This document shows positions 38,196 to 57,661 of a stretch of 64,000 nt of DNA, piece by piece. How positions within the stretch are numbered: position 1 is the first letter of the stretch; every line of letters starts with the position of its first letter. The position numbers were made by a program, and so were the translations under genes. The stretch covers positions 3,879-67,878 of the forward strand of contig CACLNT010000007.1 in NCBI GenBank assembly GCA_902608385.1, in the 5' to 3' direction. This DNA comes from an uncultured Pelagibacteraceae bacterium. GTDB lineage: Bacteria; Pseudomonadota; Alphaproteobacteria; Pelagibacterales; Pelagibacteraceae. The notes beneath the pieces were generated by a model, which did not search any database, was not told where the DNA came from, and worked only from the letters and a program-made list of their open reading frames with translations.

Positions 38196-40043
38196 ATGAA
38201 AAGAATATTACCTATAACATTTCTACTTTTTTTTATTTTATTTACAGAGAAAACAAATGCTGAAACAATTTCCGAAGACACAACTATCGAATCTGTAAAA
38301 CAAATTGAAGAAGATTTAACAATTTCTTCAGATGTTACTGTAACATGTGAAGCTACTAACTGTGTTAGATTTCATGCAACTGGGTTAACAGTTACAAATA
38401 ATGGTACCATTCTACAAGATACTAACAACAAAGATAATATGTTCGTCAATAAGAGCGGTTTTGAAGAGGATTTTAAATTTTATAACTATGGTTCAATCTT
38501 AATAACATCTGATAGTGGCGGTAATAGTGTTATCCGTTTAAACAATGTTACGGATGGTGACAGCGATGGTGTGGGAGCTTATGTGTACAATGAAGGAACG
38601 TTTGGTAATTCTTCTGCTGGTTATACGATAAGATTTAACACAACAACTGATGCAAAAATTGACAACTACGGAACAATAACAAATACTGACAGTCAAGGAC
38701 AAACTATTTACTTAGGAGATGATACTAATACAATAATAAATAACTATAGTGGAGCAACAATTTCTGCTCCTAATAATACTAGTAGTGCAACAAAGGGTGC
38801 TATTAATACTACAGCAAGTGATCTTTCTACCAGTGCAACTATAAATAACTGGGGCACTATTACAGCTGCTGACGATACGATTAACATAGGAACAAGTTCA
38901 ACAATTAACAATTATGGAAAAATTGAATCTGCAGATTTTAGTTCGGGACATTCTATATATTTTAAAGGAAACAATAATACCGTCAATTTTTATGATGGAA
39001 CTTTATTAATAGGTTTTATTGATAACAATGATACAACAGGAAATAATTTAAATATAAACCTTTGCTCTTCTTACAAATTCAAGATAGTGAATGATAACTG
39101 GACTATTAATGATAACTCTGGATGCGGGGATGTTGTTTACAGTGGAAATAAAGCAAGATCATCTTCAGCACTTTCTCAATCCACTGCAGATGAAAATGCA
39201 ACACTAAGAGTAGATCATATTAATGAAGCTTTCGATTATTCCAATAAAAAGAGAAATAAAAATAAAGAATTTGGTTTTTTTTCTAAATCTTATTCTGATC
39301 GCGATAATGGAAACGCAATTGATAAATTTGCATCATTAAAAAATAATGCAGTTATTGGTTTTCCTTTTGATAATGAGAAATATAGTGGACATCAAATTTT
39401 TAGTTTTTCATCTGACAAATCAGATTATTTAAATCTTAATGTTTCAACTTCTAGTTTTCAAACCGGTTTTGTATTTGAGGATTTAAATTTTTTTACAGAT
39501 AAAAAAATTGGCTTGAAGTCAGTTTTTGGATATCACAAGCATAAGAGCAATCGTACCCAACTAAATAGTCAAGTAGCATCAGGAAAAGAAACTATTATTA
39601 AGGATTATAATTCATTTTCAGCTATTATTGGTTCTCAAATACAAAATGGAAATATTAAAATTAATTTAGATACTAGTTTTGAAAGATTTCCTAATTACAT
39701 AGAGTCTGACGATGTTACTTGGAACTCACGTCTAGTCGGTCAGTTTATGGCTGATATTACTTATGATTTGAAAAAAAATTTAAATAAAAATTTTTCATTT
39801 AATCCAGAAGTTGGATTTGGTGGTAGAACTTTGTTTTTAGGAAAAAATCAGAAGTATACAATAGCGGGACAAGATCTTACCTTTAATGGTGGAGTTCAAG
39901 AAGATGCTTTCGCTAAATTTGCTCTAAATGCTAATTACTCTTTTTTAAATAATACGAACTTATTCATCAAGGCTTCAGCTAAAAAAACAACAGAAAATCA
40001 AGAAACCTATGGATTAAATTTTGGATTTAAAAGTGTTTTTTAA
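38196..40043 (+). CDS. Autotransporter-like outer-membrane protein 1 (beta-helical passenger plus C-terminal barrel)
   Basis: Signal peptide, repeated I/VxNxGTI turns, amphipathic strands, C-terminal YGLNFGFKSVF beta-signal. Confidence 0.72.
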   Translation: MKRILPITFLLFFILFTEKTNAETISEDTTIESVKQIEEDLTISSDVTVTCEATNCVRFHATGLTVTNNGTILQDTNNKDNMFVNKSGFEEDFKFYNYGSILITSDSGGNSVIRLNNVTDGDSDGVGAYVYNEGTFGNSSAGYTIRFNTTTDAKIDNYGTITNTDSQGQTIYLGDDTNTIINNYSGATISAPNNTSSATKGAINTTASDLSTSATINNWGTITAADDTINIGTSSTINNYGKIESADFSSGHSIYFKGNNNTVNFYDGTLLIGFIDNNDTTGNNLNINLCSSYKFKIVNDNWTINDNSGCGDVVYSGNKARSSSALSQSTADENATLRVDHINEAFDYSNKKRNKNKEFGFFSKSYSDRDNGNAIDKFASLKNNAVIGFPFDNEKYSGHQIFSFSSDKSDYLNLNVSTSSFQTGFVFEDLNFFTDKKIGLKSVFGYHKHKSNRTQLNSQVASGKETIIKDYNSFSAIIGSQIQNGNIKINLDTSFERFPNYIESDDVTWNSRLVGQFMADITYDLKKNLNKNFSFNPEVGFGGRTLFLGKNQKYTIAGQDLTFNGGVQEDAFAKFALNANYSFLNNTNLFIKASAKKTTENQETYGLNFGFKSVF

Positions 40044-40127: not shown

Positions 40128-42404
40128 GTGAAAAAAGTATTATTGATAATAGGATTTCTGTTTTTTTATAGTAGTTCTGCTTGGGCAGGACCATGCGATA
40201 CCACTTTAAGCTCGGACTCAACTAGCCAACTCGATTGTTCAGACAATGATGAGTTAACAGTTAATGAAGGCGTGAGTTTAAGTAGATCTGGTGCAGTAGC
40301 GCTTAATGGGCAATCCGATGAAAATTTAAAAATAACAAATCACGGAACAATACAAAGTAGCAGTCATCACACAATTTATCTTAGATCAGGAGTTAGTCCA
40401 ACTATAGACAATAAAAGTACCGGTACAATACAGACAACAGGAGGGTGTTGCGCTATAGGTTACAAAGATGTCAGCGGTACATTCACACTTACTAATGCAG
40501 GAAGTATAATTTCTAAGACACACGGCACAATTGTTAATTGGGGAACTAGCAGCGCTGTAACAAATATAACAAATTCTGGAACAATTCGAATGCGAGGAAT
40601 AGGAGTCAATCAAAGTAATGTGGAGGCGCTTTGCGCAATTTGTGCTGGAGGTTCATCAGGAGCTGTAACTATTACAAACTCTGGAACGATAGAAACTATT
40701 GGAGATGACAGGCCCGCAATTTATACAAACGATGCAACTACGGCAACCATAACTAATTCAGGAACAATTTCTGGCCATGGTACCGCTAAAGATATTTTAG
40801 TTGCCGATGATGCTTCCGGTACAGCTACAACTACAATCAAAATTAGTGGAGAAGGAAGCTTTAACAATGGAATTGAATTAAATGATACAACTGTACAGTT
40901 AGTTTTAGGACCTGATATTAAAAGAGATACTACAGTAACAATTTACAATAAGGACAATCTTACAATTGTAAATAACCTCACGGGAAATGATACTTACTCA
41001 ATTACAAGTGAAAACTTGGATAGTGGTGAGGGTGATACTACTCTTGGAGATGGAGTTCTTACAATACTTGGTGAAGATCTTGAGATAGATGATGAAAATG
41101 CAAAATATAGAAGCGAAAATGTTTTAACTAAGCTACGTGGTTTATTTGATGCTGTAAATTATATTAATTGGCATGCACCAGAAGATAAATTCTTTAAAAT
41201 ATTTCATAGCACACAGAAGAGAGATGGAACCTATAAGGGAGAAATGTCAGGTGTTGTTGGTCAGTTAAGTCCTTTTATTTTAGGAGATATTAGAAATAAT
41301 ATTTTTCTTGGTTATACAAGACAAGATGGAGACTTTGACAATGGTGAGTTCTTAGGAGGAGATAACTTTGCATTAGGTTTAAAAAGTGTTTATGAAAATA
41401 ATGGATTTAAAGCATCCTTTACTCCCATGATTGGTTTAAATGATCTAACTGTTACTGATTTTGATACAGATAAAGAAACTAAAATAAGTACTAATTTATT
41501 AAGTGAGTTTGCTGGGCTTAATGCAAAATTTGGAAAAGAAATAAAAACAAGTGATAAGAGTTCATTAAATTTAAGTGTTCAGTCAACTTTTGGCTTACAA
41601 AGATTTCCTGAGTATGTATCAAAGTTTACTGATGGAGATTTGTCTGTCGATGAAGCAATAGAACAGGTCCTTGGGGCAGGTTTTGAAGTAAGATATACAG
41701 AGGAACTTGGCAAAGGTTTTATTATTCAACCTTATATTGGAGCCAATGTTAATAATAATCTAAACAATTCTATAAAAATTACAGCTGGCGGAGAAAATAA
41801 AAATAAATCTCCAGCCTATGAAACAACCACAGGATATTTTGCTGGCGTTTCCTTTACAAAAGAATCTGAGGATATCAACTTTGATCTAGATTTAATGTAT
41901 GGCAATGAAGATGGTTTAATCAATCAAATTGCAGCTATTTCATTAACTAAGTCTTTTGGACAAACTGAAACAAAAATTCCAACAACAAAACCTGCTAAAA
42001 ATATAAAGATTTCAAGCGCTATCCTCAATAAAGATTTAATTGAGCTTGGTGACCTTAAAAAATTAAATGAACAACTAAAAGCCCAAAATGCAAAATTAAA
42101 AGCTGAAAATGAAAAATTAAAAATGTTGAGTGCTAAAGCGATTGAAGAAAATAAAGTTAGCAAACAGCTAATCGTTGAATTACTTAAAGAAAATGAAAAA
42201 ATAAAATTAGAAAAAGAAATTTTTAAAAATAAAATTTTAGAAAAAGAAAATAAGGAAATAAAAGATAAACTCCAAAAAACAACAAGTAAAGATGGAGTTA
42301 ATAAGTTTTTATTATTATTGTTTATTACAATTTTAGCATTGTTTGCTTATGGAATATCTTCTTTTATTGTGTCTATCTTTAAAGCGTATGTAAAAAAAGT
42401 ATAG
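40128..42404 (+). CDS. Autotransporter-like protein 2 with a C-terminal coiled coil and membrane helix
   Basis: GTG start, signal peptide (AWA), ITNSGTI repeats, barrel-like region ending AISLTKSF (residue 610), then heptad-rich tail and a 25-aa hydrophobic segment. Confidence 0.68.
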   Translation: MKKVLLIIGFLFFYSSSAWAGPCDTTLSSDSTSQLDCSDNDELTVNEGVSLSRSGAVALNGQSDENLKITNHGTIQSSSHHTIYLRSGVSPTIDNKSTGTIQTTGGCCAIGYKDVSGTFTLTNAGSIISKTHGTIVNWGTSSAVTNITNSGTIRMRGIGVNQSNVEALCAICAGGSSGAVTITNSGTIETIGDDRPAIYTNDATTATITNSGTISGHGTAKDILVADDASGTATTTIKISGEGSFNNGIELNDTTVQLVLGPDIKRDTTVTIYNKDNLTIVNNLTGNDTYSITSENLDSGEGDTTLGDGVLTILGEDLEIDDENAKYRSENVLTKLRGLFDAVNYINWHAPEDKFFKIFHSTQKRDGTYKGEMSGVVGQLSPFILGDIRNNIFLGYTRQDGDFDNGEFLGGDNFALGLKSVYENNGFKASFTPMIGLNDLTVTDFDTDKETKISTNLLSEFAGLNAKFGKEIKTSDKSSLNLSVQSTFGLQRFPEYVSKFTDGDLSVDEAIEQVLGAGFEVRYTEELGKGFIIQPYIGANVNNNLNNSIKITAGGENKNKSPAYETTTGYFAGVSFTKESEDINFDLDLMYGNEDGLINQIAAISLTKSFGQTETKIPTTKPAKNIKISSAILNKDLIELGDLKKLNEQLKAQNAKLKAENEKLKMLSAKAIEENKVSKQLIVELLKENEKIKLEKEIFKNKILEKENKEIKDKLQKTTSKDGVNKFLLLLFITILALFAYGISSFIVSIFKAYVKKV

Positions 42405-42510: not shown

Positions 42511-44628
42511 ATGAAGTTGGCACGATACATAATATCAATCGTTTTTATTACTACATTTATAAATTTGAATGCTTTAGCAGCACCCACGGATAATGATGTT
42601 GTATCTATTGACCTTACTGCTGACGAGGAAGTAACTGATGGAATAACATTTAATAATGATGGTACCAAAATGTTTTTTTCAGGAACTAATAGCGATAAAG
42701 TCCACGAATACCATTTAAGCACTCCTTATGATATGACCTCAGGATCAATGTCAGATCAAGGTATAGAACTTTCTATTACCGAAGGCAAAACGCAAGATAT
42801 TGAGTTTAATTTAGATGGTACTAAATTGTTTGTTATTGGAGTTACAAATGACACTGTTTATGAGTATACATTAACCACAGGCTTTGACCTTACAACTGCT
42901 TCGACTGACACAACTGCTTCATTTTCTGTACGTTCTGATTTAACAAGTCCGACTGGAATGATTTTTAATCATGATGGTACATATTTGTATGTTATAGGAA
43001 ACGATAATAACAAAATTATTCAATACGAACTAAGCACAGGTTTTGACATTACTACAGCAAACTCGACTGCAATTAATGAATTTTCAGTCAACAGCAAAGT
43101 GCCCAATCCTCATGGTTTAACGTTTAGCCCTGACGGTAAAAAAGTATTTATTGCTCATGATGATATTGCAGATGATGATGGTGATGAAAATAGAACAGAT
43201 GAAGTTCATGAATATACATTAAGCACCCCTTGGGATATTTCAACTATGTCTTACGAAGGTATGTTTGAGACAGACGACATTACAAGAGCAGGAGATGTAG
43301 ACTTTAATAACACTGGTACAAAAATGTATGTTACTGATTTTCATCATGATATTGTTTTAGAGTACGATTTAACTTGTGGATTTTCAATTGTTAGCTGTAT
43401 TGACCCAACTGAAAATAAAGACAAAGTTGCTTTAGTAGAAGCACAAGCAGAAATAGCAAAAAATTTTATTCTACAGACATCTTCCTCAGTGTTAAATCGA
43501 ATTGAATGGTTAAGAAGAAATGGTAAAGAAAATAAACTAACTAATCAAAATATTAAATTTCAATTTTCTAATAAGATGCTGTCATCTTTGTCAAAAGTAA
43601 TTCCAGTGTCCAGTGGTCAAAATGTAGTTAATGAACTATTGCCAGGTGGATTTTCATATTGGAGTGAAGGAAATATCAGTATTGGTAGAGTAGGTGACAC
43701 CAGTTCTTCTTCAACCAAAGTGATAAGCACTAACGGAATAACTTTTGGTGCTGATAAAAAAACTGATGAAAATAATTTTTATGGCTTAGCCTTTCGAGCA
43801 TCTCAGGACAATGTTGATGTTGGGACAATAGGCAGTTCAATAGATATGGATGCTTATAGCTTAACACTTTATGCAAGTACATCTGAAGATGATACAAAAT
43901 TTATAGATAGCATTCTTGGGTTTAGTAATTTAAGAACAGATATTTTTAATAAAAATGGCTTACATAATTTAAGAGGCAAAAGAGACGGCAAACAAATATT
44001 TAGTGCAATTAAATTTCGATCAACATTTAAAAAAGATCAGTTTAATTTAACTCCAATAGGGAAAATTAATCTTGGTTATACTCAGCTTGATAGCTATACT
44101 GAGACAAAATCTGAAGGTTTAGCTTTAAAATACAAAAAACAAGAAATTCAAACAAGGATAGCCTCTATTGGAATGATGTTTGATGACACTATTGGGTTTA
44201 AAAATTCCACGATAAAGCCAAATGGTAAACTTGAGTATAGTAGAGATTTTAGTCCATCTTCAGATGCGGTATTTAGTTATGTTTCAGAACCAAATAAAAA
44301 TTACATTTTGTCTGTTGATACAGGGGCATTTCATAACTTAAAAACTAATATTGGCTTTGATTTAACAACTAAGAACAATTTATTAATAACATTTAATTAT
44401 GAAAGAAATCAATCTAGCGGAAGTAGTTATACTGATAGTTTGTATTTTGGTGGAAGTTATATTTCAAATAAAGACACTGAATATGCTATGGCATTAGATG
44501 ATAATAAAGCTTTTTTCGATTATAAAAGAAATTTAAATGGTTTTGATATTAAAGTTAGTTCAAATTACAGTTTGATGAGCGAAATACCTGATTATGGTGC
44601 AAACATAGAAGTTTCAAGTACTTTTTAA
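42511..44628 (+). CDS. Autotransporter-like protein 3 with a beta-propeller passenger
   Basis: Signal peptide, five FNxDGTKxFV...EYxLSTxxD repeats, linker helix, barrel (WSEGNISIG, ITFGADK, YTE), terminal F. Confidence 0.75.
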   Translation: MKLARYIISIVFITTFINLNALAAPTDNDVVSIDLTADEEVTDGITFNNDGTKMFFSGTNSDKVHEYHLSTPYDMTSGSMSDQGIELSITEGKTQDIEFNLDGTKLFVIGVTNDTVYEYTLTTGFDLTTASTDTTASFSVRSDLTSPTGMIFNHDGTYLYVIGNDNNKIIQYELSTGFDITTANSTAINEFSVNSKVPNPHGLTFSPDGKKVFIAHDDIADDDGDENRTDEVHEYTLSTPWDISTMSYEGMFETDDITRAGDVDFNNTGTKMYVTDFHHDIVLEYDLTCGFSIVSCIDPTENKDKVALVEAQAEIAKNFILQTSSSVLNRIEWLRRNGKENKLTNQNIKFQFSNKMLSSLSKVIPVSSGQNVVNELLPGGFSYWSEGNISIGRVGDTSSSSTKVISTNGITFGADKKTDENNFYGLAFRASQDNVDVGTIGSSIDMDAYSLTLYASTSEDDTKFIDSILGFSNLRTDIFNKNGLHNLRGKRDGKQIFSAIKFRSTFKKDQFNLTPIGKINLGYTQLDSYTETKSEGLALKYKKQEIQTRIASIGMMFDDTIGFKNSTIKPNGKLEYSRDFSPSSDAVFSYVSEPNKNYILSVDTGAFHNLKTNIGFDLTTKNNLLITFNYERNQSSGSSYTDSLYFGGSYISNKDTEYAMALDDNKAFFDYKRNLNGFDIKVSSNYSLMSEIPDYGANIEVSSTF

Positions 44629-44635
44629 ATATAAA

Positions 44636-47600
44636 TTAAAAATTTTCCTTCCAATTTAACCTTAGTGATTGGGTATCACCAGTTAATGATTTTAAAATCA
44701 ACAAATCTTTAGGTCCGGTATTAGTTTCTCCTGCAATGTTAGCATATAAGTTACCATTAAAAGCAATTATTTTTGAAAGCGCACCTTGTCCTACATTGAA
44801 GCACTTTTCAGAAGTATGGGGTGCAGTATTAGTTCCAAGTAAAGATGAACTATTAGTACCACATTCATCATCTACGCCACAAACATAAGCATCACCCAAA
44901 GCACATTGACTTGACGTAGCAGGTTTGTATACAGGAAAATAGACTTTACCATTAGAAATAGTTGGCTCAGCTGTAACTTTTCTTCTTTCGGAGGTAGTGC
45001 CTGGTTCAAGCTTTATATACCAGCCAAGATCAGTAGTTTGTGGGCAATTAGCTCCAGGAGAAGGAGGCATATCATGAGTGGTCTCTTTACATTCTGTTAA
45101 ACCATCAATAGATACAGAAGTACTGTTTTTATAGTTTGGAAAATATTTATCTTTTATTCCAATTAATAAATTATCGACATCATTTCGGTTTGCTACACCT
45201 GTATCGTTTAGATTTCGATAGTTTCCTGTACCTGAATATAACCATAAGTTGTTAGTATCACCACCAATAGTTGCTTCCATACCGTGATACATATATCTGT
45301 TATTGCTCGAAGTCGAATTTGTAGAAAATAGAGTTGTTGTGTCGTATAAAAATATTGGAGTCGGGCTTCCAACTTGTGCTCTGTCGTCTTTCATATTTGT
45401 CAAATTTACTTTGGTAATTTTTCCTTCAAGATCATTAACATAAACTAGGGCACCTCTATAATTAGCTTGAAGTGATTGATCTGGAGTTATTACAATCGGT
45501 GTTGCTGGTACTGCATTAGCAATTCCATTTAAAGGTAAATCAGGAATATCTATTTGCTTTAATAATTTTCCATTTTCTAAATTTATAACTAATAAATTAG
45601 ATCCTATAAAGGGAGCTCCTAAACCACCTCCCATAACAGCAACATAAATATCATCTTCGTCTTGTGCATCACCGGCCCCATCATTTGGTAAACGGAATAT
45701 TCTAGGACTAGACATTGTATCACCTAAGTACCTATAATCATACTCTGCTCCATTTATAGGCATTGGATTAGTAATTGTTATTCCTGCGTTGTTGCTAGTA
45801 TGTCCTGATGCTCCATCAGCACTGTAAGTAATGTTCGATCCTAACTTTATTATAAGATCTGGACCTGATTGGGTAGTAGTTGCAGAACCAGTTACGTCAT
45901 TACCATCAAGATAAATTTTAATATCTGCTGAAGGATCAATATTTACCACATTTTTTATAGTTAATGTGTTACCTACGTAGCAAGATGTGTTCCCAAGATT
46001 ATTACATGTTTGCGATACAGATGGATTGGTATTAAAATTGTCATTAACTTTAATTATTTCTTCAAAATTATACAATCCGTAACTGTTTCCTTTATATTTA
46101 TACGGATGAATTTTTCCATCATGATCAGAACGATACACCGTTCCAGCATGATTTAAGATAGAATATAAGTGTTCTGGATTCCTTGGATCTGTTACATCTA
46201 AAACAGAAAAACCTGCTCCACCTCTTCCATAAGGTACCATTAATATTGAGTGCCATGCTTCTCCTGTGCCTCCTGGTTTTTTAAACCACATGTCATGCAC
46301 AATTGGAGAACCATCTACGCCGTATATGGGAACTGATCCTCCACCTGTAGTTTTATTTAAACCTGGATTCATCTGTATTGCTAAATTTCCAACAAGCAAA
46401 GGAGGAACAAAACCCCACAATTCATCGCCGGTGTCAGCGTTAAAAGCATGAAGTATTCCATTATTTGCTCCAGCATAAATAACTGGGTCTCTAACTATAC
46501 TGTCAGCCCAAGCTTGATAACCTTTTTTATGTCTAAAAAACGATTCTTGATTAGGATTCATAAATGCTGTATCGGCAGATGGTTTACCAACCATCACTAT
46601 TTGAGAATTATAAATATCAGCTAAATAGTGAGGTCTTGTCTCTGTTAAATTGCAGTCTCCATCATAATCAAGATAATCTTCTCCTCTTATAAAGTTTGTC
46701 AATCCAGCCGCATCATCTAATATACCATCTTGTACAGAAGCAACATTATCTCCATTGATTCCACAACGACCAACGCCTGTAATACTGCCACTATCATTAT
46801 GATAATCTCTTAATTGATTTCCAGTTAATTGAAAAAGATTTGTATGTATTTCATTAGCATATGTGTCTGAAAAGTTATCAAGAGTAGAAGGTAATTTTTC
46901 ATGAGAAGTCCAAATATTTCTAAGGCTTGGTGTTATTAATTGATCTTCTGCTTTCCATACAGGAGTTGGAGGAACACCTGTGGTTGCTGACTTCAATAAA
47001 TCTTCTACTTTTACCTTTTTTAAGGATCCTTGCCATTCTCTCGTTGCAAAATAATCGAATTGAGCTTGATACAAAGTTCCACCTTCTGCTATTGAACCTG
47101 TGATTGCTGGAGCGGTATAGGATAAATTTTCACTTGTAATAGTTGCTATTATTAATTTGAGCTCAGTTTTAAGATCTTCCGCAGTCAAAGCTTTTACAGA
47201 TTCCGTGTATGGGCTCTGACCAACAGCAGCCATTTGGTCAAATTTATTTAGTGCTGATGTGTTGCTTAATATTTCGTTTCCAAATGCAACCATAATACTT
47301 TTAATGCCGTCATTCGCTAAATCTCTCATTGTATTTAATGCTTCGGTATGAGTGCCAGATGACCAACCACCGTCACCAATAACAATCACATAATTTACCT
47401 GACAAGTTAAACTTGCATCCCATGGAGAGTCGGTGGAATGTTTAAAATATGATTCTGCCATTCTCGAAAAGGCGTTAGCGTGCGTTGCTCTATACAATGA
47501 AATTGGTTTTTGTAAATATTGGAAAATTTTATTAGCTCCCTGATCATCAATTTTAACTACTAGACAATTTTTAGTAGTACATGGGTGACCTCGATCATTA

Positions 47601-48940
47601 GCTGTGTTCCATCTAAGGTATGTAGAATCATTTCTATGACTCCACAATCCTAAACCAAGTTGAGCACCTTCTGTCAGTGCACTGTCCGATACTACAGCTT
47701 TAATAGCTTCAACAGCTCCTCTTAGTTTTGATACACCGCTTAAACCAAATACTCTTTGAAATTCTAAATTTTTATTTATTATAACTACTTCAAGTCGTCC
47801 TCTATTAGCAACAACGAGTTCACCAGCTTGGTTAAAGCTTATACTACGAGGCTCCATTAAATAAAGTTTACCAGGAACTGAAGGTTCAAACGCATCAGCT
47901 ATTCCTTGTGAATCAATCTCACTAACAATGTTTCCATTGTTAACTTTAATTTTACAAATTTTATGTGTATATGTTCCTGCTGAATATAATATTGTAGAAT
48001 CAAGTGGATCAGTAACTAACCCATGAGATTCTCCACATGGATTAACAAAGGCAGCAGTTTTTGTTTCACTTACACATCCATTTGTAACTTTAAAACTCCA
48101 AATTTTACTGTCATTGCTATTTGCAACGTATAAATAATCATTATTGCTATCAGCTGTAATAGCGGTAACAAATTTTGCTGCAGTATGTAAATCTCCAGTA
48201 CCATCAATTCTATATTTGTTACCAGTTGAAAAATTAGTTGAACATGCCCAATTAGTATTATTTGTAAAATCATCATTTAATGATAAGTCTTTTACCCAAA
48301 GATAGGCATTACCCCCTCCAAATTTTCCTCCGCCCATCGCATATAAAGTGTCACCTTGAATATCAATTGCGAGATGATTGCTCGCGAAACCTATAGCAGC
48401 AACTTGATTAACACAAAATCTATCTCTATCAGGTCTACTCGTATCAAGTCGTGTAGTTGTACGAGGATCAAGCTGCGTTACTAAGCTATAATTTGGATTA
48501 TCATTTTTTAAATGTGCCATATAAAGCATGCCATTATATTCTTCTATATTTACAACATTATCTCTATAACCTTTTGAATTTTGGTTCGGCATGTTCCCCC
48601 AGGGAGCACTGGTCCTACATCCATTAGCTGAAACACTATTTATTTTTCCATAAGGAGCAAATTGATTTGGCGTATCATTCCACGCAATTATTCCACCATT
48701 ATCTATTTCTGCTACCCAATAATGTCCATGTGTTGAATCTTGAACCACAGCCATAGGTTCTTTCATTCTATGACTTCCAGCAGATCTATTTGCGGGGCTA
48801 TTCATACTAAAAGTACGGTCTAATAAAATTAATATGTTTGCAGGTATGCTAGTACCACTTCCAGGAGGTAAACTTTTAGAAGTAGATTGGTTAGTTAGTA
48901 CCAGCAAAAAAAGAAAGGCTAAACTTAATAATTTTTTCAT
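44636..48940 (-). CDS. pilY1: PilY1/PilC-like type IV pilus adhesin, paralog A
   Basis: Signal peptide, vWA strand ILILLDRTFS, VIVIGDG, PilY1 core LADIYNS, IYAGANNGILHAF, GDELWGFVP, YGVDGSP, LDVTDP, GWYIKL. Confidence 0.85.
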   Translation of the reverse strand: MKKLLSLAFLFLLVLTNQSTSKSLPPGSGTSIPANILILLDRTFSMNSPANRSAGSHRMKEPMAVVQDSTHGHYWVAEIDNGGIIAWNDTPNQFAPYGKINSVSANGCRTSAPWGNMPNQNSKGYRDNVVNIEEYNGMLYMAHLKNDNPNYSLVTQLDPRTTTRLDTSRPDRDRFCVNQVAAIGFASNHLAIDIQGDTLYAMGGGKFGGGNAYLWVKDLSLNDDFTNNTNWACSTNFSTGNKYRIDGTGDLHTAAKFVTAITADSNNDYLYVANSNDSKIWSFKVTNGCVSETKTAAFVNPCGESHGLVTDPLDSTILYSAGTYTHKICKIKVNNGNIVSEIDSQGIADAFEPSVPGKLYLMEPRSISFNQAGELVVANRGRLEVVIINKNLEFQRVFGLSGVSKLRGAVEAIKAVVSDSALTEGAQLGLGLWSHRNDSTYLRWNTANDRGHPCTTKNCLVVKIDDQGANKIFQYLQKPISLYRATHANAFSRMAESYFKHSTDSPWDASLTCQVNYVIVIGDGGWSSGTHTEALNTMRDLANDGIKSIMVAFGNEILSNTSALNKFDQMAAVGQSPYTESVKALTAEDLKTELKLIIATITSENLSYTAPAITGSIAEGGTLYQAQFDYFATREWQGSLKKVKVEDLLKSATTGVPPTPVWKAEDQLITPSLRNIWTSHEKLPSTLDNFSDTYANEIHTNLFQLTGNQLRDYHNDSGSITGVGRCGINGDNVASVQDGILDDAAGLTNFIRGEDYLDYDGDCNLTETRPHYLADIYNSQIVMVGKPSADTAFMNPNQESFFRHKKGYQAWADSIVRDPVIYAGANNGILHAFNADTGDELWGFVPPLLVGNLAIQMNPGLNKTTGGGSVPIYGVDGSPIVHDMWFKKPGGTGEAWHSILMVPYGRGGAGFSVLDVTDPRNPEHLYSILNHAGTVYRSDHDGKIHPYKYKGNSYGLYNFEEIIKVNDNFNTNPSVSQTCNNLGNTSCYVGNTLTIKNVVNIDPSADIKIYLDGNDVTGSATTTQSGPDLIIKLGSNITYSADGASGHTSNNAGITITNPMPINGAEYDYRYLGDTMSSPRIFRLPNDGAGDAQDEDDIYVAVMGGGLGAPFIGSNLLVINLENGKLLKQIDIPDLPLNGIANAVPATPIVITPDQSLQANYRGALVYVNDLEGKITKVNLTNMKDDRAQVGSPTPIFLYDTTTLFSTNSTSSNNRYMYHGMEATIGGDTNNLWLYSGTGNYRNLNDTGVANRNDVDNLLIGIKDKYFPNYKNSTSVSIDGLTECKETTHDMPPSPGANCPQTTDLGWYIKLEPGTTSERRKVTAEPTISNGKVYFPVYKPATSSQCALGDAYVCGVDDECGTNSSSLLGTNTAPHTSEKCFNVGQGALSKIIAFNGNLYANIAGETNTGPKDLLILKSLTGDTQSLRLNWKENF

Positions 48941-53274: not shown

Positions 53275-53480
53275 TGATTGTGGAAAAATTTTTATTTATT
53301 AATATTATAATTTCAGCATTAAACATTTTTATTATTGTTTATGCTTATTCTCTTAATTTTTTTCCAAAAAAATGGCGAAAGAAAGTAAACCAAGATACAC
53401 TTGTTGGATTAGCTTTAATATTTTCTACAATGTTAACGATGTTTGCTTGGATAATTTTTTTTTACTATAAAAAATTTTAA
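53274..53480 (+). CDS. Small 2-TM hypothetical protein
   Basis: Two hydrophobic helices around FPKKWRKK; TAATG-coupled to pilin 3. Confidence 0.6.
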   Translation: MIVEKFLFINIIISALNIFIIVYAYSLNFFPKKWRKKVNQDTLVGLALIFSTMLTMFAWIIFFYYKKF

Positions 53481-56400
53481 TAATTCATTTTCCAAGAATT
53501 TCTATAAGTAGAAACATCTCCTGATGTGCCTTCTATTTGAACTAAATCTTTCTTACTTTGTTCTGACTCTCCAGCAATGTTTGCAAATAATTTACCTGCA
53601 AAAGTTACAATTCTCGATAATACCCCTTTACCAACATATGTGCATTGTTCAGTACTAACTCTTTTTCCTAATCTAGAAGATAAATTCGTTCCACATTCAT
53701 CATCTACAGCACATATAAATGCTTCTCCTAAACTACAAGCATTAACAGAAGTAGTCGGTTTATAAATTGGAAAATAAACTAATCCACTAGATACAGTTGG
53801 TTCAGCTGTAACTTTTTCATAGTTATCTAACTTTATGTACCAACCTTTATCTCCAATTAACTGAGGACATTTAGCACCAGTAATATCATTTGTTGTATTT
53901 ACACATTCGGTTAGATCAGGAGCTTCTGTTGCTGTTTTTATGTCTCTATATCTAGGATAATAAGGGTCGTTAATTCCAAGCAACAAGTTATCTACACCAG
54001 CAGATTTATCTGCTATACGTTCATAATTTCCTGTTCCGGCATATAACCACATAGAATTAGTTGTTTCACCTATCGTTGCATCCATTGAATGAAACATATA
54101 TCTTTGATTAGTTGAAGTAGCTCCTGCACTAAACAACGTAGTATTTTGATAAAGATCTATTTGTAAGCCTCCCTGATTTGCTTGTTCATGAGTCATGTTG
54201 GTTAGATTAAATTTAGTAATTTTTCCCTCTAGGTCGCTTGTATAAACTAAAGCTCCTCTAAATCTTACTCCTCTTGCAGTATCTGGAGTAATAACAACAG
54301 GTGAGCCTGGCACTGCATTTATGATACTATTTCCAGGTATATCAGGGATATCAATAACTTTTAAAACTTCACCATAACCATTTATACCTTTTTCTAAATT
54401 AACAATTGTAAGATTTGATCCTACTCCAGGAGTTACAGCGGCATATCCTCCACCCATTACAGCCACATAAACATCATCTTCCAAATTTACATCGTTTCGA
54501 CCCTCAGTAGGTAACCTTATTATTCTAGGAGCCGACCAAGTGTCACCAAGTTTACTATAATCATATTCAGGTTTATTAATTAGTCCAGTTGCTGTTGAAG
54601 AGCTCTTAATTTCTACTCCTAAATCAGTACTTCCTTTAGTTTCATCTGAGGCTCCTACATCAAATCCATAATAAGTCATCTCTTCTTTAAAATTTAAAAC
54701 AGAGTATCCTGCACCATCGGAACTAACAGTAAACTTTGTGTAAGGCTGTTGATCTTTCGTTACAATTAAATCTGCTGATTTTAAACCTCTTATTGGGAGG
54801 GTCCATACTTTTGCTTTATGACACTGGGTGTTTCCAGAACTATCACATGTTTGTGATGTTGAACTATCTTCAGCATTATCTTTTGCTCTCTTTGCTTCAT
54901 TAAAGGAAGCCAAACCATAATGAGTTGCTATATATTCCCATTCTTCAAAACCTCCTTTATGATCTACAAAATGGACTTTTTTTAGTATGTAATCATTATA
55001 TATTGAATATAAGTGTTCTGGATTTTTTGGATCTGTTACATCTAAAACAGAAAAACCTGCACCACCTCTACCGTAAGGTATCATCAATATTGTGTACCAG
55101 CCTTTACCATTTGTACCTGGTTTTATAAAATACATGTCATGCACAACAGGAGAACCATCGACACCGTATATAGCATTGGATCCACCATAACCTTGATCTT
55201 TATTTCTATTTAAATTTGCATTAACCATTTCAGGTAATCTGCCGCCTATGAATGGTGGTATAAAACCCCATAACTCAACACCAGTTTTTGCATCAAATGC
55301 ATGAAGCATCCCATCATTAGCTCCGACATAAATAACTGAGTCTCTAACTATACTGTTAGCCCAAGCTTTATAGCCCTTAATTGATCTCCAATATGCTTCT
55401 TGATTTGTTCCAACAAAGGCAGTTTCTGCATTAGGCTCGTCAACAACAACCATTTCAGAGTGATAAATATCTCCCAATATGCATTTTGTAAAATTGCAAG
55501 TTAATGGGTCTTTTCTTACTTCAGTTAAATTACAATCTGAATTATAATCAAAATAATCTTCCCCTCGTATAAAATTAATAAGTCCTTTAATATCATCATC
55601 AGTTCCATTTTCTATGTTGGCTGACCCAGGTTTTGAACTGCCTGAACATCTCGTTGTATTGGGTGGATCATTATCACTATTCTCACTATGATATCCGGCA
55701 ACTTCATTTCCTAATCTTTCAAATAATCCGGTTATGTCGGACAAATTACCTTCTACAAAATTATTATATTTACGTACAGTTGCAGTACCAGCATCATTAG
55801 GTACACCCTTGTAATCAGCATCTATTATAGTCCAAATATTTCTAGCATCTGGATTGGGCATTAAATTAGCTGCACTCCAAGTATCATTTGGGTCAATATC
55901 CCCTTTAGAATCTATTGCTGTTCTTGTTAAAGTTCCATTCCACTCTTTGTTTTGTTGATAATCGAATTGTGCTTGAAACAAGCTTCCACCTTTTTCAATT
56001 GTTGCCGTAATTGCAGGCGCAGTAAATGACAATTTGGCTGCAATAATTTGTGAAATAGCAGCTTTTAACTGTGATTTTAAAGAGGCTGTATTGTCAGCAA
56101 TAATTACATCTTTAGTTCCACCAGCTATAGCCATTGCTCTAAAATTATTAATTCCGTTAGTACCTATTCCTCCTCCATAGGCAACTGTAAATGTTTTAAT
56201 TCCACCATTTTCAGGTTTTTTCATATTTTTTACCTGCTTTATTGCAGTATCATGATTTTGCCACCCTCCATCTCCAATAACCAATACATAACTATTTTGA
56301 CATGGAGAACCATCATCAATGGGTGAATGTGTTGCGTTCGCATAATATTGACTTGCCATTCTTGCCCATATAGCGGCATCTGTCCCACCTTTTGGACTTA

Positions 56401-57661
56401 CACTTTTCACAACTTTCCAAGTTTTTTCTGCACCGTCAGCATGAACTTTAACTTTTAAACAATTATTACTAGTACAAGGGATTCCTTGATCTTTTTTTGT
56501 ATTCCAGCCTGTAAACCATTTTGCTCCACCTTTCCATTGAGAAGACCACCAACCAAATCCGAAATTAACTCCTGCTTTTAAAGCAGGATCCGATGTAATA
56601 GCTTGAATTGCTTCATGCGCTCCGGTCATTCTTGTTCCCGTGCTGCCTCCTATTTCTTTTAACCAACCTAAGTTTAAATTATAGAACTGAACTGAGGGCT
56701 TCCAGTAATCTGAAACAGCAATTCTGTCATTAGTTGTGTCTATAGCTATATCTCTAGGATAATAGCTTTTAACTTTTGAAGCTGTTGATTTTGCAGCACC
56801 TCTACTTCCTTTACTGCTAGAAGTAGTTAGACCATTTCTATTTGCATTCATTGTATATTTATATAATTTATGCTGGTTCATGTTTGTTACGTATAGAATT
56901 GAGTCATCTGTTGGATGGCCTTCCATTCCCCATGAATACTTCAAAGATTTAATATAAATACGGCTAGTATAATTTGCTGATGGACAATTATTTGTAATTG
57001 CATGTCTATATATATATCTATAACGATGAAAATAAAAATTGCTTCCAGAGGCATCAAGACCTATAGAATACGAATTATTAATTTGATTATTTGTTATAGC
57101 ATTACATGAGATATCTGTGTCTGTACTTAAGTTACGTACATATAAACCTTTAAAACTTAAAGCATACAAAATATCGCCTCTGATTTTCATCTTACGATAA
57201 TATTTGTCTGAAGATTTCCACAAACATGCTCCACTGGCTATATTAATTTTGTAAATTCCACCCAAATAATCAGCGATGTATAAATTGCCACCGTGTATTC
57301 CCATAGAATAAACATACCTTATATTACACGTTGTTCCTGATGTAGTTACTCCTGAAAATATTCCTGAATTTGCAAAATTTTTATCCACTAGTTTTGTATC
57401 GTAAGTAAATTTTTTAATTCCCGTCATAAGTTGCGCAACATATACATCTCCATTAGAATCAAAAACTTGATCCATAGGATAGTAAACTCCAGCTCCATCA
57501 ATCATTTTTGCCGACATACTCCCAGATCTATCTAAAAGAATTAATACGTTAGCAGGAACATCTCCAATACCAGATCCTGGCGGTAAAGCTTTTGAAAAAG
57601 CGTTACTTGTTAATAAAATAAATGATATTAATAAGTTAATTATAAAAAATTTAATTTTCAT
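53477..57661 (-). CDS. pilY1: PilY1/PilC-like type IV pilus adhesin, paralog B
   Basis: Signal peptide, MIDAS DRSGS, VLVIGDG, LGDIYHS, YVGANDGMLHAFD, ELWGFIP, YGVDGSP, LGDTWSAP, GWYIKL; ends the minor pilin operon. Confidence 0.88.
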   Translation of the reverse strand: MKIKFFIINLLISFILLTSNAFSKALPPGSGIGDVPANVLILLDRSGSMSAKMIDGAGVYYPMDQVFDSNGDVYVAQLMTGIKKFTYDTKLVDKNFANSGIFSGVTTSGTTCNIRYVYSMGIHGGNLYIADYLGGIYKINIASGACLWKSSDKYYRKMKIRGDILYALSFKGLYVRNLSTDTDISCNAITNNQINNSYSIGLDASGSNFYFHRYRYIYRHAITNNCPSANYTSRIYIKSLKYSWGMEGHPTDDSILYVTNMNQHKLYKYTMNANRNGLTTSSSKGSRGAAKSTASKVKSYYPRDIAIDTTNDRIAVSDYWKPSVQFYNLNLGWLKEIGGSTGTRMTGAHEAIQAITSDPALKAGVNFGFGWWSSQWKGGAKWFTGWNTKKDQGIPCTSNNCLKVKVHADGAEKTWKVVKSVSPKGGTDAAIWARMASQYYANATHSPIDDGSPCQNSYVLVIGDGGWQNHDTAIKQVKNMKKPENGGIKTFTVAYGGGIGTNGINNFRAMAIAGGTKDVIIADNTASLKSQLKAAISQIIAAKLSFTAPAITATIEKGGSLFQAQFDYQQNKEWNGTLTRTAIDSKGDIDPNDTWSAANLMPNPDARNIWTIIDADYKGVPNDAGTATVRKYNNFVEGNLSDITGLFERLGNEVAGYHSENSDNDPPNTTRCSGSSKPGSANIENGTDDDIKGLINFIRGEDYFDYNSDCNLTEVRKDPLTCNFTKCILGDIYHSEMVVVDEPNAETAFVGTNQEAYWRSIKGYKAWANSIVRDSVIYVGANDGMLHAFDAKTGVELWGFIPPFIGGRLPEMVNANLNRNKDQGYGGSNAIYGVDGSPVVHDMYFIKPGTNGKGWYTILMIPYGRGGAGFSVLDVTDPKNPEHLYSIYNDYILKKVHFVDHKGGFEEWEYIATHYGLASFNEAKRAKDNAEDSSTSQTCDSSGNTQCHKAKVWTLPIRGLKSADLIVTKDQQPYTKFTVSSDGAGYSVLNFKEEMTYYGFDVGASDETKGSTDLGVEIKSSSTATGLINKPEYDYSKLGDTWSAPRIIRLPTEGRNDVNLEDDVYVAVMGGGYAAVTPGVGSNLTIVNLEKGINGYGEVLKVIDIPDIPGNSIINAVPGSPVVITPDTARGVRFRGALVYTSDLEGKITKFNLTNMTHEQANQGGLQIDLYQNTTLFSAGATSTNQRYMFHSMDATIGETTNSMWLYAGTGNYERIADKSAGVDNLLLGINDPYYPRYRDIKTATEAPDLTECVNTTNDITGAKCPQLIGDKGWYIKLDNYEKVTAEPTVSSGLVYFPIYKPTTSVNACSLGEAFICAVDDECGTNLSSRLGKRVSTEQCTYVGKGVLSRIVTFAGKLFANIAGESEQSKKDLVQIEGTSGDVSTYRNSWKMNY

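Follow-up and report, generated by a model that had tools for sequence, protein, structure and literature searches.

Type Va autotransporters are defined by a C-terminal β-barrel (PMC13721041). How, then, is a protein to be understood in which such a barrel is followed, in the same reading frame, by a coiled coil and a hydrophobic helix? The question is raised by a gene at positions 40128–42404 of a 64,000-nt stretch of DNA (the window) from an uncultured Pelagibacteraceae bacterium of the SAR11 lineage (assembly GCA_902608385.1, contig CACLNT010000007.1). A first-pass annotation, made from the sequence of the window, had proposed that this single chain links the cell surface with both the outer and the inner membrane and acts as a tether, spacer or surface sensor. 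We followed up the gene by homologue surveys, structure prediction and literature comparison. The fusion is real and conserved, and the reading that we favour, with slightly more confidence than doubt, is a dimeric surface adhesin whose tail would cross the periplasm and rivet it to the inner membrane.

Results

Barrel and tail are encoded by a single gene

The gene starts with GTG at 40128, its stop codon ends at 42404, and the single frame between them encodes 758 residues. No stop follows the codon of the last barrel residue, F610 (TTT, 41955–41957), and 148 residues lie beyond it, as the first-pass annotation had read. Such a frame could also be an artefact, if read-through or mis-assembly merged an ordinary autotransporter gene with a distinct gene for a coiled-coil membrane protein. 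Contigs from three sequencing runs of three independent studies cross the junction (X1, 41921–42120; X2, 41922–42109; X3, 41891–42119), each with two differences and without gap, stop or indel; the fourth run compared (X6) held no contig piece over the junction. This comparison covered 41000–42200, and support for the hydrophobic segment beyond comes from homologues. Among the best 120 of 437 homologue matches, 119 keep a tail of at least 120 residues with a hydrophobic segment (19-residue Kyte–Doolittle maximum, KD19, of at least 1.8), and one has a 15-residue tail. Because the query included the tail, this count is biased upward, and we therefore repeated the test with the barrel alone (see below). 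Barrel and full tail stand in one frame in 25 gene copies from GTDB Pelagibacterales genomes, both single-cell and metagenome-assembled, and a long-tail profile, which also detects short tails, gave 15 matches in 401 Pelagibacteraceae-family genomes, all directly behind a barrel match. The 24 metagenome loci found via the tail comprise 19 with an in-frame barrel upstream, 4 that start at a contig edge and 1 that is frameshifted. In the latter (L100:2971–3016), about 24 barrel-end codons are missing and the frame shifts before the tail, so that this copy appears to be either a broken gene or an assembly error.

What might speak for an artefact is that 39 of 99 short database proteins matching the tail begin within it or near its start. 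Their start points are internal and scattered, mostly on short contigs, without a recurring start or a signal peptide; another 47 carry the barrel end, and the remaining 13 have one-off N-termini. Judged without genomic context, these short proteins read as fragments. The bridging contigs, the conserved homologues, the in-frame GTDB copies and the tail-profile survey refute the artefact, to which we attach a vanishingly small probability. The first-pass annotation had pointed to 41950–41965 as the place where reads might reveal a stop, to homologues as the check on the fusion, and to a stop after LTKSF or a region unlike a barrel as fatal to its claim; the contigs run through without a stop, homologous tails are fused to barrels, and neither fatal outcome occurred.

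The barrel is of the autotransporter type and is predicted to end in the periplasm

The whole protein matched no family in Pfam or NCBIfam. The barrel alone matches the autotransporter family PF03797 with 33.1 bits (cut-off 26), and 23 of 23 aligned members match it at E ≤ 0.01. A first AlphaFold2 model of the whole protein, from an alignment of 50 close homologues, had a well-folded passenger and a collapsed barrel (predicted local distance difference test, pLDDT, of 22–45 over residues 440–644), and this model had no Foldseek match at E ≤ 0.001. The collapse was an effect of the shallow alignment and was cured by an alignment of 117 diverse sequences over residues 316–758, which yielded a helix and 12 strands at a pLDDT of about 90, the last strand spanning residues 597–608. 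The top Foldseek matches of the barrel are EspP (E 9e-14), EstA, AaaA, BrkA and NalP (down to 2e-10), and in VIA-align it scores Z 28.4 with EstA (rmsd, root-mean-square deviation, 2.8; 294 aligned) and Z 28.0 with NalP, against 18.3 for the next protein that is not an autotransporter. The membrane barrel ending in QIAAISLTKSF that had been read from the sequence is thus recovered in the model. A profile search of PDB sequences with the barrel gave no match at E ≤ 1, and no YadA anchor was matched in the protein or in the barrel. The ratio of nonsynonymous to synonymous substitution rates (dN/dS) of the barrel is 0.10.

Barrels of this family that have an even number of strands finish their last strand on the periplasmic side. 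With 12 predicted strands, the tail would therefore begin in the periplasm. The last barrel residue differs between family members with and without a tail: the barrels of tail-less forms end in F (4 of 4 genomes, 9 of 10 clusters), those of long forms in F (76 of 126) or L (50 of 126), and those of short forms mostly in I or L (109 of 118). The terminal aromatic constraint thus appears relaxed once a tail follows the barrel.

The tail ends in a predicted inner-membrane anchor

The protein closes with 25 uncharged residues and seven more that include three Lys, the KAYVKKV end of the first-pass annotation; the modelled last helix spans residues 726–757. The KD19 of this segment is 2.39, compared with 2.05 for the C-terminal anchor of the same genome's cytochrome c1 and a maximum of 1.41 among 249 family barrels, and it is attained by 41 of 5000 shuffles of the tail. 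In 126 long tails KD19 ranges from 2.15 to 3.07 (class threshold 1.8), in short tails it is at most 0.63. A scan of the 1241 open reading frames of the genome for a signal peptide combined with a single C-terminal helix returned only this protein and cytochrome c1. All of 41 representative tails contain an uncharged or near-uncharged run of 20–33 residues (two hold one Lys), followed by 2–14 residues that are net positive in every case, with a mean charge of +2.6 after the helix versus +0.8 before it. The dN/dS of the end helix is 0.57, and its hydrophobic moment is low to moderate. Because hydrophobicity and charge are kept while the sequence drifts, the segment resembles a generic anchor rather than a recognition or cleavage motif. 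It likely is an inner-membrane anchor with its basic end inside; of the earlier proposal, the anchor hallmarks are borne out, and the topology is what we infer from them.

In the tail alignment, neither the helix nor the residues before it show a conserved motif for cleavage or sorting. Sorting-signal models (GlyGly-CTERM, PEP-CTERM) gave no match for the whole protein and none for 31 tails among the matches listed (25 of 28 NCBIfam families). There is one such tail per genome, where a sorting signal would be expected on several proteins per genome, and no exosortase was found in the genome, which is 85% complete. NCBIfam matches of the tails to FeoB (17 of 31), YneA and SecDF lie far below cut-off, and we read them as a consequence of coiled-coil-plus-helix composition.

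The coiled coil is the conserved part of the tail and is predicted to dimerize

Between barrel and end helix, the first-pass annotation had noted a linker and a heptad-rich stretch of about 85 residues; the coiled coil is present, modelled as one helix of 81 residues (638–718) with a length of about 12 nm. Its heptad positions a and d are occupied by Asn and Leu, respectively, the pattern of two-stranded zippers. Two copies of residues 634–722, the only stoichiometry tried, were predicted as an in-register parallel dimer with a score of 0.47 (best control 0.00) and a pLDDT of 86; among solved structures, 20 of 30 pairs and 1 of 23 single chains attain the score threshold. The model runs share at least 98% of their contacts, which coincide with the a and d positions read from the sequence. 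Structure prediction, which the first-pass annotation had suggested for monomer and oligomers, thus supports a parallel homodimer, a point that it had missed.

A core at about residues 671–703, common to the anchored form and an anchor-less sister form, has an identity of 81% and a dN/dS of 0.14, compared with 0.29–0.34 in the other parts of the coiled coil (dN/dS values from 58 non-independent pairs among 26 genes). Insertions and deletions in the coiled coil come in steps of 7: the spacing between two anchor motifs is 45, 52 or 59 in 72 of the 73 tails that hold both, and 32 of 105 tails lack the first motif. Sequence conservation thus marks this core as the conserved part of the tail.

The family occurs in three tail forms

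The barrel-only profile matches in 30 of the 401 Pelagibacteraceae-family genomes and in 18 of 173 high-quality genomes. Among the 401, we distinguish (i) the long anchored form in 10 genomes, (ii) a short form with a C-terminal coiled coil of 68–79 residues and no anchor (L039–L054, L110:4757–7405; P0133–P0289) in 16, whose tails, read on from the barrel end, measure 71–73 residues, and (iii) a tail-less form that stops at the barrel F in 4. The long form is found in 2 of the 173 high-quality genomes. In the six short-form loci that were inspected, nothing resembling a separate anchor gene lies behind the stop. Because the coiled coil is carried without the anchor by the commoner sister form, it would have a role of its own. 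Among 1.84 billion cluster representatives, 56 clusters match the barrel, and of the 30 that reach its end, 12 have the long tail, 3 the short one and 10 none, while 5 are truncated or chimeric; a search with distant members returned 118 short-tail proteins. In 400 other Alphaproteobacteria genomes, searched with the long profile, which can miss weak matches, all 25 matches fell on the passenger part and none on barrel or tail, and viral contigs held no relatives of the tail. In what was searched, the family appears restricted to SAR11.

In a quick, unrooted barrel tree of 50 rows, in which recombination is likely, anchored and short forms separate and tail-less rows lie inside both. The tail-less forms are not one clade (approximately unbiased test, p-AU 1e-8), and a single anchored clade is not rejected (p-AU 0.10). 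Tandem pairs of the anchored form occur at three loci (L005, L007 and L014), with differing passengers and tails (135 versus 150–161 residues; 160 versus 147 residues), and it is conceivable that such copies heterodimerize through the shared core.

The anchored form could reach across the periplasm

In the anchored form, 101–138 residues (median 117) separate barrel and helix, compared with about 71 in the whole short tail, and the core lies 56–84 rather than 47–53 residues past the barrel. A longer periplasmic part is expected if length is needed to span the periplasm. The modelled tail reaches 12 nm as a rigid helix and about 24 nm at most with both linkers stretched. The periplasm of E. coli measures about 21 nm, and that of Pelagibacter is large. 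Spanning both membranes is therefore possible in the model, not assured: of the crossing at about 13 nm that the first-pass annotation had proposed, a reach that includes the linkers stands, and the helix alone is probably too short. The available text of the literature searched held no periplasm width for SAR11 and gave differences for E. coli rather than an absolute width; the distance between the membranes matters and varies within cells (PMC5736177, PMC12528386, PMC5771553).

Signal peptide, passenger and feature coordinates

The predicted signal peptide has a basic start, a hydrophobic core and an A-x-A end, is modelled as a helix at residues 2–15 and was also selected by the genome hydrophobicity scan. 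Compared with the lipobox pattern, no lipobox can be read from the sequence, Pro preceding the first Cys. The passenger matched no Pfam family. Its best structural matches are Vag8 (Z 20.7, rmsd 3.1, 249 aligned) and an alginate lyase (Z 20.2), with UpaB, pertactin and tailspikes close behind Vag8, within a few Z units. Because these proteins score alike, the β-helix fold leaves the function unassigned. Both N-terminal features named by the first-pass annotation, a signal peptide and a β-helix passenger, are thus found, the former as a sequence pattern and the latter in the model and its structure matches. Mean identity in the homologue alignment is 55% for the passenger versus 78% for the barrel. 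Homologues range from 748 to 1036 residues, with a widely varying passenger (P0063, P0068, P0087, P0104, P0112 and others) and a near-constant barrel and tail; PF27417 and PF27415 are listed for the longer ones. All feature coordinates are given in Table 1.

Table 1 Features of the gene, in positions of the window and residues of the encoded protein
Feature	Residues	Positions	Strand	Basis
Complete gene (758 residues) for signal peptide, passenger, barrel, coiled coil and anchor		40128..42404	+	Single copy in genome
Sec-type signal peptide	1–20	40128..40187	+	Pattern read from sequence; predicted cleavage
Passenger, right-handed β-helix	21–315	40188..41072	+	AlphaFold2 model, pLDDT ~90
Pore-threading helix	323–343	41094..41156	+	AlphaFold2; aligned with pore helices of EstA and NalP
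12-stranded autotransporter β-barrel, end F610	355–610	41190..41957	+	PF03797, model, structure matches
Pro/Thr/Lys linker, unstructured	611–637	41958..42038	+	pLDDT <50; identity 38%; dN/dS 0.52
Coiled coil, predicted parallel homodimer	638–718	42039..42281	+	AlphaFold2, pair model, heptads
Hydrophobic helix, predicted inner-membrane anchor	727–751	42306..42380	+	Hydrophobicity, charge
Basic end, predicted cytoplasmic side	7 residues + stop	42381..42404	+	Charge pattern

Genomic context

The gene sits between two other barrel-ending genes. Upstream lie genes that we take, from their sequences, to be mreBCD–mrdAB-like; downstream follow a PilY1-like gene, a GAF–SpoIIE gene, PilD and genes that we likewise take to be pilin-like. 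Pilus genes (PilD, PilY1-like, PilM/N, pilin-like) occur in the flanks covered for 14 of 24 GTDB loci and in none of the other 10. A GAF–SpoIIE gene occurs in 10 of the 24, and three loci hold two tandem copies. In one locus read at length, the short form adjoins a PilY1-like gene. A large SAR11 autotransporter adhesin has also been reported next to pilus genes (PMC12636525), and because other SAR11 autotransporters adjoin such genes, the pilus link is unspecific and points to a general surface island. We take the anchored protein to be accessory surface equipment of certain lineages, frequently encoded in a type IV pilus island, and not a general spacer.

Both neighbours end in F, as the first-pass annotation had stated, with the qualification that the F of neighbour 3 comes about 54 residues after the apparent twelfth strand. 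Neither belongs to the barrel family described here by profile comparison. Neighbour 1 (38196–40043, +) has a signal, β-helix-like repeats and a barrel-like end, and matches neither Pfam nor NCBIfam nor the profile of the anchored family; its relatives adjoin the gene in L001, L007 and L024 and form a third, unclassified barrel family. Neighbour 3 (42511–44628, +) is one of four PF03797 paralogues in the genome (with G000 C2, C4 and C8), all of which have this extension and end in F. The aligned extension (also L001:7409–9562) resembles four more β-strands and may either enlarge the barrel or represent an additional C-terminal element. The GAF–SpoIIE gene, PilD and three pilin-like genes are flanked by genes for two PilY1-like proteins, each about 1400 residues long (44636–48940, −, with a Pfam match, and 53477–57661, −). 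Promoter and terminator scans at the gene gave results at chance level. Four RNA or possible-RNA runs contain 5–11% of the sequence words, which we do not take as expression. Omp85 and an OmpA/Pal domain were not found in the 85% complete assembly; assembly gaps are the probable cause for both and, for Omp85, the most likely one.

Discussion

A proposed dimeric adhesin held at both membranes

In the favoured reading, Sec would export the chain via its signal peptide, and the end helix would halt the transfer and stay in the inner membrane with its basic end inside, like that of cytochrome c1, as hydrophobicity and charge suggest. Two anchored chains would pair through the predicted leucine-zipper-like coiled coil, and the β-barrel assembly machinery (BAM) would read the now-internal last strand and insert each barrel, the fold of which is predicted confidently, while the β-helix would pass to the surface. 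The outcome would be a two-headed adhesin that passes through the peptidoglycan mesh, is held at both membranes, stays in place, resists being pulled out and is not lost in outer-membrane vesicles. Support for a protein of both membranes comes from the real and conserved fusion, the predicted barrel fold with its periplasmic exit, the strong anchor and the positive end in 41 of 41 tails. Internal β-signals for BAM have been discussed (PMC13067283), and in simulations, the force needed to pull out an adhesin barrel is doubled by an anchor in the periplasm (PMC13082670). That one chain would be an outer-membrane barrel, an inner-membrane protein and a surface adhesin at once, its C-terminus never leaving the inner membrane in a permanent paired rivet, we regard as evenly balanced between true and false. 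The same balance applies if this permanence is taken jointly with an evolutionary series in which the relatives would display the steps: a bare barrel, an added dimerizing coiled coil, then a lengthened coiled coil with an anchor. The broader roles proposed by the first-pass annotation are unlikely: a general envelope tether or spacer fits poorly with the scarcity of the long form, found in just 10 of the 401 family genomes (and in 2 of the 173 of high quality), and a surface sensor with an anchor that is followed by only 2–14 residues and drifts in sequence (dN/dS 0.57 versus 0.10 in the barrel).

Several points weigh against this reading. The reach of the tail may be marginal for periplasm widths, and tails differ in length by as much as 37 residues, more than a strict ruler would allow. 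Fewer genomes carry the anchored form than the anchor-less one (10 versus 16 of 401), and 4 of the 401 have a tail-less form; because the anchor-less and tail-less forms persist, neither anchor nor tail would be needed to retain a family member. Coiled coils pass complex prediction easily, and a trimer or tetramer is possible. The modelled passenger fold suits lyases and tailspikes as well as adhesins. A rhomboid protease, encoded once in the genome on another contig, could cut the anchor. Finally, a Veillonella adhesin without peptidoglycan binding was not released more under shear (10.64898/2026.01.22.700529), which speaks against retention as the purpose of such tails.

The rhomboid bears on the main alternative, in which the end helix is a temporary assembly tether that would hold the precursor at the inner membrane and that a protease would cut after pairing and BAM engagement, leaving the barrel with a free periplasmic coiled coil as in the short form; we consider this unlikely, while giving it appreciable weight. 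Such a tether would take the place of the extended signal peptide by which other autotransporters are slowed, and it would fit an anchor-less form that is complete and commoner, as well as strong selection on the core (0.14) and not on the anchor (0.57). Alphaproteobacteria are described as lacking extended signal peptides, and periplasmic coiled coils as stabilizing trimeric autotransporters (10.64898/2026.01.22.700529), and N-terminal tethering in biogenesis is established (PMC3297439). However, the helix is accompanied by no conserved motif, by no sorting-signal model among the matches listed and by no exosortase detected in the 85% complete genome, and it occurs once per genome; the rhomboid is unspecific, since members of its family are present in 14 of 14 controls. 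Moreover, a cut tether would not require a stalk that is 45 residues longer, and the passenger is small, whereas extended signals accompany long passengers.

Docking of the tail on another machine, with the type IV pilus alignment complex as the likeliest candidate, or a relay of surface contact to an inner-membrane partner, for positioning or sensing, would draw on the pilus genes at 14 and the GAF–SpoIIE genes at 10 of 24 loci, on the short form beside a PilY1-like gene and on a core identity above what a plain zipper might need. This we hold to be quite improbable: 10 of the 24 loci lack a pilus gene in their flanks, other SAR11 autotransporters adjoin pilus genes as well, the short cytoplasmic end is unconserved and the helix sequence drifts, and the conserved core positions are already used by the homodimer model. 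Very improbable, in our judgement, is an inner-membrane protein with an unused or unfolded barrel, or an end helix located elsewhere (packed against its twin within the periplasm, or beneath the outer membrane). The barrel is divergent, without a match to solved sequences, and its last residue is L instead of F in 50 of 126 long forms; yet its low dN/dS, the full and confident barrel model and tail-less relatives that end in F at the same place indicate a barrel in use. A 25-residue segment of such hydrophobicity normally halts in Sec, and together with the low to moderate hydrophobic moment this argues against a location elsewhere.

Implications

In the prevailing view, an outer-membrane barrel is set free in the periplasm and only then folded by BAM from its C-terminal signal. 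If the adhesin is indeed fixed at both ends, a barrel whose C-terminus is held in the inner membrane would show that release before BAM folding is not required, and the protein would be a ready-made probe of the hand-over from Sec to BAM, of internal β-signals and of the limits of membrane spacing. Were the anchor cut after assembly, it would still be new, as the C-terminal equivalent of an extended signal peptide. No adhesion has been observed in SAR11 (PMC12636525). Here, the genes mark a family of lineage-specific surface proteins whose three naturally occurring tails provide a built-in comparison.

Comparison with known systems

Like the type Va autotransporters EstA, NalP, EspP, Hbp and BrkA (PF03797), the protein has a signal peptide, an N-terminal β-helix passenger, a pore helix and a 12-stranded barrel; unlike them, its barrel is not C-terminal and is followed by 148 residues of coiled coil and hydrophobic helix, predicted to form a periplasmic dimer. 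It appears to derive from, and to work like, a type Va translocator without being a canonical member; its tail-less relatives satisfy the C-terminal rule. In the literature searched, which left most subscription journals outside, we found neither a monomeric-type autotransporter with a C-terminal coiled coil nor a barrel protein with an inner-membrane helix. Whether this is the first barrel protein fixed in both membranes is, to us, a question with an even chance of either answer.

A coiled coil directly after the barrel is shared with the trimeric autotransporters of type Vc, about 12% of which carry a C-terminal periplasmic coiled coil or wall-binding domain, rarely in Proteobacteria, and barrels with such coiled coils are secreted (10.64898/2026.01.22.700529). 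Veillonella VtaA and VtaG also parallel the family in their short and long versions and in the stabilizing role of the coiled coil. In contrast to the protein described here, which has no YadA-type anchor and whose 12 strands come from one chain, they are of type Vc, obligate trimers with four strands per chain, and their long versions end in SLH or OmpA domains that bind the wall; the text searched mentions no inner-membrane helix on trimeric autotransporters, and its supplementary lists could hold cases. FapF (PMC5557850) and OmpM/SlpA likewise combine an outer-membrane barrel with a periplasmic coiled coil that oligomerizes or reaches the wall, and FapF has 12 strands and a helix plug (Z 16.8 to this barrel). 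Their coiled coil, however, is N-terminal and trimeric, and they have neither passenger nor inner-membrane helix. In AtaA with TpgA, an adhesin barrel is reinforced from the periplasm against pull-out (PMC13082670), by a separate peptidoglycan-binding helper and not by a fused tail that ends in the inner membrane.

Single chains that join both membranes are found in other systems. The u-spanin gp11 of phage T1 has an outer-membrane end and a C-terminal inner-membrane helix and runs through the peptidoglycan (PMC6139136). It differs in its lipid outer anchor, β-rich periplasmic part, role in phage lysis and lack of a surface domain; our protein shares the C-terminal helix by prediction, has no lipoprotein signal and lies among chromosomal rod-shape and pilus genes rather than in a phage lysis context. 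VirB10 of type IV secretion also sits in both membranes as a single chain and was termed a unique envelope-spanner (PMC4182333), but its inner-membrane helix is N-terminal, its outer-membrane part α-helical, its polarity opposite, and it works as a 14-mer within a machine. If the favoured reading is true, the autotransporter described here adds a new single-chain way to span the envelope, beside VirB10 and the u-spanins.

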